DNA from: Escherichia coli
GTDB taxonomy: Bacteria; Pseudomonadota; Gammaproteobacteria; Enterobacterales; Enterobacteriaceae
Reading direction: 5' to 3' (one strand)
Length of the DNA stretch: 64,000 bases
Assembly (NCBI RefSeq): GCF_003334355.1
Contig: NZ_QOWP01000019.1
This document shows, in pieces, positions 57,618-60,785 of this stretch. The position numbers and the translations under genes are program-made. The notes under the pieces are model-generated. The model was not told where the DNA came from. It saw nothing but the letters and a program-made list of their open reading frames with translations, and did no database searches. Every line of letters begins with the position of its first letter. The first letter of the stretch is position 1.

Positions 57618-58379
57618 TTAACGAGCCAGCCAACCGCCATCCACGGCAATGGTATAACCATTCACATAATCTGAAGCGCTGGAGGCAAGGAACACTACCG
57701 GCCCCATCAGGTCACTCGGCAGTCCCCAACGGCCAGCTGGAATGCGGTCGAGAATTTCCGCGCTACGTTGTTCATCTGCCCGTAGTTGTTGAGTATTGTT
57801 GGTCGCCATGTAACCCGGAGCTATCGCATTAACATTAATGTTGTGTTTAGCCCATTCGTTCGCCATCAATCGCGTCACGCCCATCACACCGCTTTTTGAT
57901 GCGGTATAAGAAGGCACACGGATCCCGCCCTGGAAGGAGAGCATTGACGCGATATTGATAATCTTGCCGCCATTGCCTTGCGCGATAAAGTGTTTCGCCG
58001 CTGCCTGAGACATGAAGAATACGCTCTTGATATTCAGGTTCATGACATCGTCCCAGTCTTTTTCGCTGAACTCGAGAGCATCTTCGCGGCGAATCAATCC
58101 GGCGTTATTCACCAGGATATCAATATGACCAAACTCCGCTACCGCGCGATCCAGCAGTGCTGGAATGCCATCAATCTTTCGCAGATCGGCGGTCAGGCTT
58201 AAAAAACGACGCCCCAGCGCCGTGACCTGCTTGATGGTTTCAGTCGGTTCAACGATGTTAATGCCAACAATGTCACAGCCCGCTTGCGCCAGCCCCAACG
58301 CCATCCCCTGGCCCAGCCCAGTATCACAACCAGTGACGACCGCAACTTTACCTTCGAGAGAAAATGCACTTAAAATCAT
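57618..58379 (-). CDS. kduD: 2-dehydro-3-deoxy-D-gluconate 5-dehydrogenase (SDR)
   Basis: 253-aa ORF recognised as KduD. Confidence 0.95.
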   Translation of the reverse strand: MILSAFSLEGKVAVVTGCDTGLGQGMALGLAQAGCDIVGINIVEPTETIKQVTALGRRFLSLTADLRKIDGIPALLDRAVAEFGHIDILVNNAGLIRREDALEFSEKDWDDVMNLNIKSVFFMSQAAAKHFIAQGNGGKIINIASMLSFQGGIRVPSYTASKSGVMGVTRLMANEWAKHNINVNAIAPGYMATNNTQQLRADEQRSAEILDRIPAGRWGLPSDLMGPVVFLASSASDYVNGYTIAVDGGWLAR

Positions 58380-58408
58380 AACAATACCTTATTCGTTTAT
58401 GCCCACAA

Positions 58409-59245
58409 CTAGCGCAAATCTTTAACGGCCACATGGTCCATATCATCAAAGACCTGGTTTTCACCGACCATGCCCCAGATAAAGGTATAAGCTTTGGTTC
58501 CGACGCCGGAATGAATCGACCAGCTCGGGGAGATCACCGCCTGCTCGTTATGCATCACAATATGACGCGTTTCTTGCGGCTGCCCCATCATGTGGAAAAC
58601 GCAGGCGTCATCATCCATATTGAAATAGAAATAAACTTCCATCCGGCGCTCGTGGGTGTGACACGGCATGGTGTTCCACAAGTTACCCGGAGCCAGCTCC
58701 GTCAGCCCCATACTCAATTGGCAGGTTTCCAGTACATCCGGGACAAAATATTTGTTAATCGTGCGACGGTTACTGGTGAGGTTATCGCCTAACGTGACTG
58801 GAGATACTTCGTCCGGTGTGACTTTTTTGGTGGGATACGTCGTATGCGCGGGTGCGCAATTGTAATAAAACTTCGCCGGAGTGCCGGTATCAATACTGGC
58901 AAAGACAACTTCTTTTGCACCTTTACCAACATACAGGGCGTCGCGGTGACCGATTTCATAGCATTGGCCATCGACAGTAATCGTACCGGCACCGCCAATA
59001 TTGATAACACCTAACTCGCGACGTTCAAGGAAATAGCTTACGCCGAGTTGTTTACCAACTTCCCCGCCAACGGAAACCGTTTTAGTTATCGGCATAATGC
59101 CGCCAACAATAATTCGGTCAATGTGGCTGTAAACCATGGTGTACTCATCGGCGACAAATACCTTTTCAACCAAAAATTCATTGCGCAGCCCTTGGGTATC
59201 CAGCGTTTTTGCGTGCGCACTGTGGATGCTCTGTCTTACGTCCAC
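58409..59245 (-). CDS. kduI: 5-keto-4-deoxyuronate isomerase
   Basis: 278-aa ORF recognised as KduI. Confidence 0.95.
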
Positions 59246-59290
59246 ATCAACCTCCGATAATCAGTGAAGCGTGAAAATAGAAAACGATAG

Positions 59291-59305
59291 TGAAACACTG
59301 TTTCG
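59291..59305. promoter_or_regulatory. KdgR-like operator half-palindrome upstream of kduI
   Basis: tgaaacactgtttcg (GAAACA/TGTTTC inverted motif). Confidence 0.5.
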
Positions 59306-59355
59306 TTTTCTCTATAAAGGGATGATATGCCCATGGGCTAGGGTTTTCAATTAAA

Positions 59356-59378
59356 AATAAAACAATGTTTCATTTTTA
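59356..59378. promoter_or_regulatory. KdgR operator (AATAAAACAATGTTTCATT-type palindrome)
   Basis: aaataaaacaatgtttcattttt, near-perfect palindrome fitting the KdgR box of pectin-catabolism regulons. Confidence 0.6.
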
Positions 59379-59531
59379 AGTTAAGGATTAAAAAAAGTGC
59401 AGTGTCGATCACGAATATGTCATGAGAATGGAAAAATGAGGGAGCCCAGAAAATGTATGTCGACTTGCCAGCCATCATTATTCAACAGATTAATGACGGC
59501 AGATATTTATCGGTAAGGAGGAAATGCAGAG

Positions 59532-60713
59532 CTATTCGTCACGTTCAATGGTCAATGCCACACCCTGGCCCCCGCCGATACAAAGCGTTGCCAGTCCTTT
59601 GCGGGCATTACGTTTCACCATTTCATGAACCAGAGAAACCAGGATTCGGCAACCGGAAGCGCCTATCGGGTGACCAAGTGCGATCGCACCACCATTGACA
59701 TTGACCCGACGCTCATCCCACTCAAGCATCTTGCCAACCGAAAGCGCCTGTGCAGCAAACGCTTCATTAGCCTCGATAAGATCGACATCAGCCAACTGCC
59801 AGCCTACACGCTCCAGGCAACGGCGGGTCGCATACACCGGCGCAATTCCCATCAATGCCGGATCTACACCAACGCTGGCAAATGCGCGAATGCGGGCCAG
59901 CACGGGTAAATTCAACGCTCGTGCTTTGGCTTCGCTCATCATCATTACCGCAGCTGCGCCATCGTTTATGGATGATGCATTACCCGCTGTCACAGAACCG
60001 AGACTATCAAATGAAGGATTTAAACGGGCTAAACCTTCTGCACTGGCGTCAGTGCGTGGCTGTTCATCGGTATCAACAACCAACGTCTGACCGTTACTTT
60101 GGGTCATTACCGGGACGATCTCATCTTTAAATCGTCCGGCGTCAATCGCCGCTCGCGCTTTTTGTTGCGAGCTAAGTGCGTAAGCATCCTGCAATTGACG
60201 GCTGATGCCATATTCGCGAGCCAGATTTTCGGCGGTGACACCAATATGATAATCATTGAAGGCATCCCATAACCCATCATGCACAAGACTGTCAACCAGC
60301 TGGCTATTGCCAAGCTGTGCACCGGTGCGGCTATCAGTCAGAACATGTGGTGCGCGGCTCATGTTTTCCTGGCCACCGGCGATGACAATATCAGCCTCGC
60401 CACACTGTATCGCCTGAGTAGCCAGATGCAGTGCTTTAAGTCCGGAACCGCAGACGTCATTAATCGTGATTGCAGAAACGCTATTAGGCAGACCACCTTT
60501 AATAGCCGATTGCCTTGCCGGATTCTGCCCTGCCCCTGCAGTCAACACCTGACCAAGAATTACTTCATCCACCGCATATGCAGGAACGCCGGTACGTTCT
60601 ATTAACGCTTTCACGACCAGACTACCAAGTTCCACGGCGGAATGACCCGCTAACGCACCGCGAAAGCAGCCGATAGGTGTCCGTAACGCCCCGACAATCA
60701 CAACGTCTTTCAT
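59532..60713 (-). CDS. yqeF: Acetyl-CoA C-acetyltransferase (thiolase II family) YqeF
   Basis: 393-aa thiolase ORF from the ATG at 60713; an in-frame GTG lies one codon upstream. Confidence 0.92.
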   Translation of the reverse strand: MKDVVIVGALRTPIGCFRGALAGHSAVELGSLVVKALIERTGVPAYAVDEVILGQVLTAGAGQNPARQSAIKGGLPNSVSAITINDVCGSGLKALHLATQAIQCGEADIVIAGGQENMSRAPHVLTDSRTGAQLGNSQLVDSLVHDGLWDAFNDYHIGVTAENLAREYGISRQLQDAYALSSQQKARAAIDAGRFKDEIVPVMTQSNGQTLVVDTDEQPRTDASAEGLARLNPSFDSLGSVTAGNASSINDGAAAVMMMSEAKARALNLPVLARIRAFASVGVDPALMGIAPVYATRRCLERVGWQLADVDLIEANEAFAAQALSVGKMLEWDERRVNVNGGAIALGHPIGASGCRILVSLVHEMVKRNARKGLATLCIGGGQGVALTIERDE

Positions 60714-60785
60714 CACAACCTCGCACCAATTAACAGTGCAATAGTAAATGATTGTTAATTACAGTTATCTTAATTGTTTAAAAAA

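Follow-up and report, generated by a model that had tools for sequence, protein, structure and literature searches.

Two KdgR-type operators bracket a predicted sigma-70 promoter upstream of kduI-kduD in Escherichia coli

Introduction

The closest described relative of the locus analysed here is the pectin and 2-keto-3-deoxygluconate (KDG) regulon of Dickeya dadantii (Erwinia chrysanthemi) and other Enterobacterales, which includes the pathway genes kduI and kduD, is governed by the IclR-family repressor KdgR, and has an operator box common to kdgK, kdgT and ogl. The consensus of this box is given as AATRAAAYRNYRTTTYATT or AAATGAAACAnTGTTTCATTT (Nasser, 1994; Rodionov, 2000/2004; as cited in PMC5559549 and PMC6958661), and the 21-mer AAATGAAACANTGTTTCATTT is attributed to Rodionov et al. 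(PMC5559549). A second system is that of PlaR (YiaJ), also an IclR-family repressor, which has GAAA-N5-TTTC half-sites and for which kduI is reported as a shared target (PMC6958661). PlaR differs from KdgR in its effector (galacturonate or ascorbate, not KDG), and its plaR-yiaK operator misfits the KdgR matrix described below. For the arrangement of sites, the nearest models are gal OE/OI and CytR-type anti-activation, where a class I CRP site is combined with a repressor that lies between CRP and polymerase or brackets the promoter.

The spacer upstream of E. coli kduI has the same dyad as the KdgR regulon (two copies, with 0 and 2 mismatches), in front of the same pathway genes and with a repressor of the same family. 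Unlike its pectin-degrading relatives, E. coli has no pectinases and no ogl, and its kduI lies beside yqeF instead of facing ogl. The locus also resembles gal OE/OI and the CytR-type promoters in having an activator upstream, one repressor site in between and a second downstream of the start. However, this likeness is limited to the arrangement of sites, and the kduI boxes lie 67 bp apart and out of phase.

We consider it very probable that this spacer is the control region of kduI-kduD, with a sigma-70 promoter bracketed by two KdgR operators and activation by CRP-cAMP. The operator pair belongs to a well-known class, and such regulation in E. coli was already predicted and genetically supported; the biology is not new. 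What the locus offers is a genuine transcription-factor operator pair that can be recognised from raw sequence alone, together with an annotated map of kduI-kduD control that comprises a CRP-like site, the two operators (O1 and O2), the -35 and -10 hexamers and the Shine-Dalgarno region. RefSeq records carry no annotation of operator, promoter or CRP-like sites in the kduI spacer. The map could be of help in mutating the operators or in turning the promoter into a biosensor for KDG or hexuronates.

Results and discussion

The yqeF-kduI spacer

The window, by which we mean the whole 64-kb stretch of DNA that was analysed, has the gene order ygeA-araE-kduD-kduI-yqeF-yqeG-yqeH of the E. coli chromosome (ORF list and RefSeq annotation). 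The genes at and next to the spacer, all taken from the ORF list and RefSeq, are:

57618-58379, minus strand: kduD, which follows kduI
58409-59245, minus strand: kduI coding sequence, 5-dehydro-4-deoxy-D-glucuronate isomerase, the regulated gene
59532-60716, minus strand: yqeF

The interval 59246-59531 is the whole 286-bp spacer from the yqeF stop codon to the kduI start codon, and hence any kduI promoter must lie within it, on the minus strand. Its sequence is identical to that of K-12. Among 5,426 complete E. coli genomes, 5,419 contain the 601 bases around the spacer at 96.5-100% identity, 5,419 have kduI annotated as such by RefSeq, and 5,425 contain kdgR, which lies outside the window.

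A terminator scan after yqeF (59430-59535, minus strand) found no intrinsic terminator. The sole hairpin 3' of yqeF (59471-59500) has no T-run and folds no better than shuffles (z = -1.2), and transcription may possibly read through from yqeF into the kduI control region. An Rfam scan of 59000-59800 returned only a chance microRNA match (E = 0.58).

Two boxes match the KdgR consensus

The two boxes in the spacer are:

59356-59374 (19-mer core; extended 23-mer 59354-59376), minus strand: O1, the distal and primary KdgR operator, 0 mismatches to AATRAAAYRNYRTTTYATT
59289-59307 (19-mer core; extended 23-mer 59287-59309), minus strand: O2, the proximal KdgR operator, 2 mismatches to AATRAAAYRNYRTTTYATT

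On the kduI strand, O1 reads AATGAAACATTGTTTTATT (centre 59365) and O2 reads AACGAAACAGTGTTTCACT (centre 59298). The initial annotation had reported the palindrome aaataaaacaatgtttcattttt at 59356-59378; this string is present, but at 59355-59377, one base away. Its second string, tgaaacactgtttcg, is found exactly where it had been placed, at 59291-59305.

Allowing up to two mismatches to the Nasser-type consensus AATRAAAYRNYRTTTYATT, O1 and O2 are the only matches in the 64 kb (0.09 expected), and two such matches occurred in 0 of 100 shuffles of the window. At up to three mismatches there are still two matches against 1.28 expected, a count that is not significant, and the signal thus comes from the quality of the matches and their co-location. 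The longer forms of the consensus give the same picture. Compared with the 19- and 21-bp versions (AATRAAAYRNYRTTTYATT and AAATGAAACAnTGTTTCATTT), O1 has 0 and 1 mismatches, respectively, and O2 has 2 and 3, while the 21-mer AAATGAAACANTGTTTCATTT is matched in the 64 kb only by O1 (1 mismatch) and O2 (3 mismatches), with 0.01 such matches expected. Independently of any consensus, a repeat finder reported two copies of a 17-nt element, 67 bp apart and 88% identical, as well as the O1 palindrome, with 19-nt arms that are 84% complementary and centred at 59365.

We scored the window with a symmetric KdgR matrix made for this analysis, which is not a curated database matrix and from which the kduI boxes were excluded. 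It was trained on 35 distinct boxes found before the divergent ogl gene in other Enterobacteriaceae, together with the E. coli boxes of kdgK (AATGGAACACTGTTTTAAT) and kdgT (AATAAAACAGCGTTTCAAT). This independent matrix assigns 28.5 bits to O1 and 25.7 bits to O2, both within the 22-34 bits of the training sites. The third-best site in the 64 kb reaches 7.6 bits, which is at chance level (the mean maximum in simulations was 8.7), and the highest score in 200 simulated 64-kb sequences was 22.5 bits, none of them reaching O2. The scan with a KdgR motif that the initial annotation had proposed as a check thus gave high scores, not low ones, for both boxes.

The proposed comparison with kdgK and kdgT also came out in favour of the boxes. 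These two sites have the same core, GAAAC-N3-GTTT(C/T), and score 26.7 and 23.3 bits, respectively, by the same matrix, of whose training set both are members; the kduI boxes score close to them. O2 had been described as a weaker copy. This does not hold for E. coli, where O2 is not weak because its 25.7 bits are comparable to kdgK, kdgT and the training sites in general. In the regions scanned, kdgK and kdgT have one strong box each (kdgT also has a weak 12-bit neighbour), whereas kduI has two strong boxes that bracket its promoter.

Elsewhere the matrix found little. The best site at edd-eda scores 13.5 bits (L084:3095), which is not a strong KdgR box, and neither kduI itself nor the 29-bp gap between it and kduD contains a match (58380-59245). 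A separate kduD promoter fragment has been reported to be inducible by hexuronates (PMC3578941). The regulation of this fragment is not accounted for by O1 and O2.

Promoter and site geometry

A promoter scan of the spacer gave a single sigma-70-like promoter, which lies on the kduI strand and matches 10 of 12 positions. Shimada et al. (PMC3946193) give the same hexamers and spacing (TTGAAA-17-TATCAT) for kduI, beneath a SELEX peak of RpoD holoenzyme between kduI and yqeF. With the remaining features of the map, the promoter is placed as follows:

59396-59417, minus strand: CRP-like site ATTCGTGATCGACACTGCACTT, whose left half (CGTGA) is strong and whose right half (CTGCA) is weak, centre about 59406.5
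59322-59350, minus strand: predicted sigma-70 promoter of kduI-kduD, -35 TTGAAA at 59350-59345, 17-nt spacer, -10 TATCAT at 59327-59322
59251-59258, minus strand: Shine-Dalgarno region (GGAGG), preceding the GTG start of kduI at 59245, mean identity 0.87 in an 80-species alignment

Transcription of kduI would start near 59315 on the minus strand. Relative to this predicted start, O1 covers about -59 to -41 (centre about -50) and abuts the -35 hexamer, O2 covers about +8 to +27 (centre about +17) in the transcribed leader, and the CRP-like site lies upstream of O1 with its centre at about -91.5; as the start is a prediction, the values -50, +17 and -91.5 could be a few bases off or refer to a different promoter. 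O1 and O2 bracket the predicted promoter.

Conservation across Enterobacteriaceae

To see which parts of the spacer are conserved, we aligned the 190 bases upstream of kduI from 80 species, represented by 80 kduI loci of representative genomes, all Enterobacteriaceae and with KduI identity of at least 90%; the kduI loci of Dickeya, Pectobacterium and Yersinia fall outside this sample. Six conserved islands stand out: CGTGATC of the CRP-like site (identity 0.93), O1 (0.86), the -35 hexamer (1.00), the -10 hexamer (0.81), O2 (0.79) and the Shine-Dalgarno region (0.87), while the rest of the alignment averages 0.58. Within both boxes the GAAAC/GTTT arms are 0.95-1.00 conserved and the three central bases 0.40-0.66. 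Conserved arms around a variable centre are typical of a dyad to which a dimer binds. Inside the genus Escherichia, E. whittamii included, the same islands are invariant, as are the arms of O2.

The boxes differ in how well they are kept. None of the 80 species has an O1 below 15.4 bits. For O2, 42 of the 80 have a score of 15 bits or more, and roughly half of the genera other than Escherichia have a degenerate copy; the contribution of O2 may therefore be lineage-specific. Their distance is nearly constant, at 67 bp in 54 species and 68 bp in 22 (76/80), and the CGGAAC left arm of O2 is retained even in low-scoring species. The -35 hexamer does not vary in sequence and starts at +15 from the centre of O1 in every species (80/80), and the GTGA of the CRP-like site lies at -48 (67 species) or -47 (10 species) from the same centre, an offset fixed in 77/80. 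This fixed register of CRP-like site, O1 and -35 across the 80 species makes a tidy conserved module of activator, repressor and promoter.

The surroundings of the module have changed. In Enterobacteriaceae other than Escherichia, kduI is divergent from ogl (oligogalacturonide lyase; L015:355-1530), which has its own KdgR box, ATCAAAACnnnGTTTCATT. This ogl-side box lies at -340 to -375 from the kduI start (L006-L078). In Escherichia, the 3' end of yqeF occupies the ogl side of the spacer, and hence ogl and its box are absent from this position while the kduI module is kept.

A candidate CRP site

The CRP-like site is not a canonical one. No match to the CRP consensus TGTGAN6TCACA with up to two mismatches occurs in the spacer, and CGTGA-TCGACA-CTGCA has four mismatches to the 10 core CRP bases. 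CRP sites of class I are centred near -61.5, -72.5, -82.5 or -92.5, and the centre of this one is at about -91.5 from the predicted start. Across the 80 species its CGTGATC block is 92.5% conserved; this conservation and the fixed register point to a function. In Dickeya, activation of kduI by CRP was reportedly described by Reverchon in 1997. For E. coli, a CRP gel shift on the kduI promoter has been published and kduI was classed as Crp-activated (PMC8085971), and kduI expression is lowered in a crp mutant (PMC8846999). We keep the term CRP-like for what is, on the grounds of its conservation and this literature, a candidate CRP site.

Probable regulation by KdgR

The initial annotation had taken the KdgR boxes to be the regulatory input of kduI-kduD, and this reading gains support from the matrix scores, the position of the boxes and the published derepression in kdgR mutants. 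The mRNA of kduD is up in a kdgR deletion, and also in a plaR deletion (Shimada et al., PMC6958661), and kduI and kduD are both over-expressed in a strain with a deletion that includes kdgR (Sastry et al., PMC6892915). A kduI promoter fusion was induced 7- to 54-fold by galacturonate and glucuronate (Rothe et al., PMC3578941). The ExuR/UxuR box AATTGGTATACCAATT has no match with up to three mismatches anywhere in the 64-kb window, and the induction by hexuronates is hence better explained via KDG and KdgR than by direct action of ExuR or UxuR at a site here. The hexuronates would presumably act by being converted to KDG, the inducer of KdgR known from Dickeya. Action of E. coli KdgR at O1 and O2 is supported by genetics and by prediction; the protein for which in vitro binding has been shown is PlaR.

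A mechanism can be proposed from this layout. When inducer is absent, dimers of the IclR-family repressor KdgR would sit on both O1 and O2. At O1, KdgR would block the docking region of the alpha C-terminal domains and sigma region 4 of RNA polymerase, and would also separate the polymerase from the class I-positioned CRP-cAMP site near -91.5. Bound at O2, it would interfere with formation of the open complex or with escape from the promoter. The breakdown of hexuronates or pectin fragments would then yield KDG, which would release KdgR, and with KdgR off and glucose absent, CRP-cAMP would activate transcription. We infer the mode of repression at each box. Beyond KdgR, the spacer appears to receive further inputs, namely at the conserved CRP-like site and through the paralogous repressor PlaR (YiaJ), which the boxes are reported to bind. 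Neither CRP nor PlaR had figured in the initial annotation.

An elaboration of this mechanism, which we regard as unlikely, is that a KdgR tetramer (a dimer of dimers) bridges O1 and O2 in a very small loop, with PlaR competing for the boxes and bringing in a second sugar-acid signal. It suggests itself from the steady distance of 67-68 bp between the two boxes in different genera, from their placement on either side of the promoter, and from the dimer-of-dimers tetramers that occur in other IclR-family proteins. However, 67 bp corresponds to about 6.4 helical turns, which places O1 and O2 out of phase. The spacing may simply reflect the promoter in between, and looping is speculative.

O2 as a possible relic or RNA structure

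It could also be that O1 is the sole working operator and that O2 is a decaying relic, or mainly part of an RNA hairpin in the leader. For this speaks that O2 falls below 15 bits in 38 of the 80 species, which O1 never does, and that the predicted kduI leader (59240-59316, minus strand) forms a hairpin, GAAAACGA...UCGUUUUC, that encloses O2 (-19 kcal/mol, z = -2.1). However, the outer arms of this hairpin are not evident outside E. coli when the leader is aligned with those of other genera, and the position of O2 relative to O1 and its CGGAAC left arm are maintained even where its score is low. In Escherichia, moreover, O2 scores within the training range and its arms do not vary. We find this explanation improbable. 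In E. coli, by its matrix score and its conservation in the genus, O2 is a strong site; outside Escherichia, it could conceivably be a relic.

PlaR as an alternative main regulator

Another alternative is that the boxes serve chiefly as operators for the KdgR paralogue PlaR (YiaJ), also of the IclR family, and that the part of KdgR is minor or indirect. PlaR produced peaks at kduI in genomic SELEX and shifted kduI DNA in gels, kduD mRNA is raised in the plaR mutant, and the proposed PlaR box, ATnTGAAACnnnGTTCAnTT, is similar to the KdgR box (PMC6958661). The gel shifts nevertheless took 1-5 micromolar protein (PMC6958661), and deleting kdgR is enough on its own to derepress kduD and kduI (PMC6958661, PMC6892915). 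KdgR and PlaR are 34% identical. The kduI boxes carry the full GAAACAnTGTTTC core, as do kdgK, kdgT and ogl, whereas the strongest target of PlaR, the plaR-yiaK spacer, reaches at most 2 bits with the KdgR matrix and has only GAAA-N5-TTTC in common with them. That PlaR is the main regulator here is thus very unlikely. Co-regulation by KdgR and PlaR is plausible, while PlaR replacing KdgR is not.

The plaR-yiaK spacer of MG1655 (L092:2534-2733) contains TTTGAAATCAAGTTTCGCA. From its score of at most 2 bits, the boxes of PlaR and KdgR are distinguishable despite their common GAAA-N5-TTTC half-sites.

Finally, there is a negligible probability that the palindromes arose by chance in AT-rich sequence, or are structural DNA (an H-NS-bound tract or a yqeF terminator), with no specific regulator: the spacer is AT-rich, H-NS has been flagged there (PMC3946193) and the consensus count at up to three mismatches (2 vs 1.28) is not above chance, but the two matches at up to two mismatches lie 67 bp apart where 0.09 are expected, no simulated sequence reaches their matrix scores, conservation across the 80 species is confined to the dyad arms while the flanks drift, and the spacer holds no terminator-like site or Rfam family. 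Against chance symmetry, the simulations, the count at up to two mismatches and the conservation of the arms in the 80 species are decisive.

Unusual contexts of the kduI upstream region

Two records show the region in an unusual context. The contig JACZXR010000090.1, from a 'Deltaproteobacteria MAG' (L002), is E. coli-like only at 541-1476, where it is 99% identical to 59265-58330 of the window. Both KdgR boxes are absent from its upstream DNA (1-560), which instead has an unrelated methylase-like ORF with an NPPY motif; the contig is probably chimeric or contaminated. In E. coli strain ANT (L085:3329-4440), an IS1 is inserted just upstream of the CRP-like site, with the breakpoint at about 59427, and yqeG-yqeF has the opposite orientation to that in the window. 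In this strain the promoter, O1, O2 and the CRP-like site are all intact.
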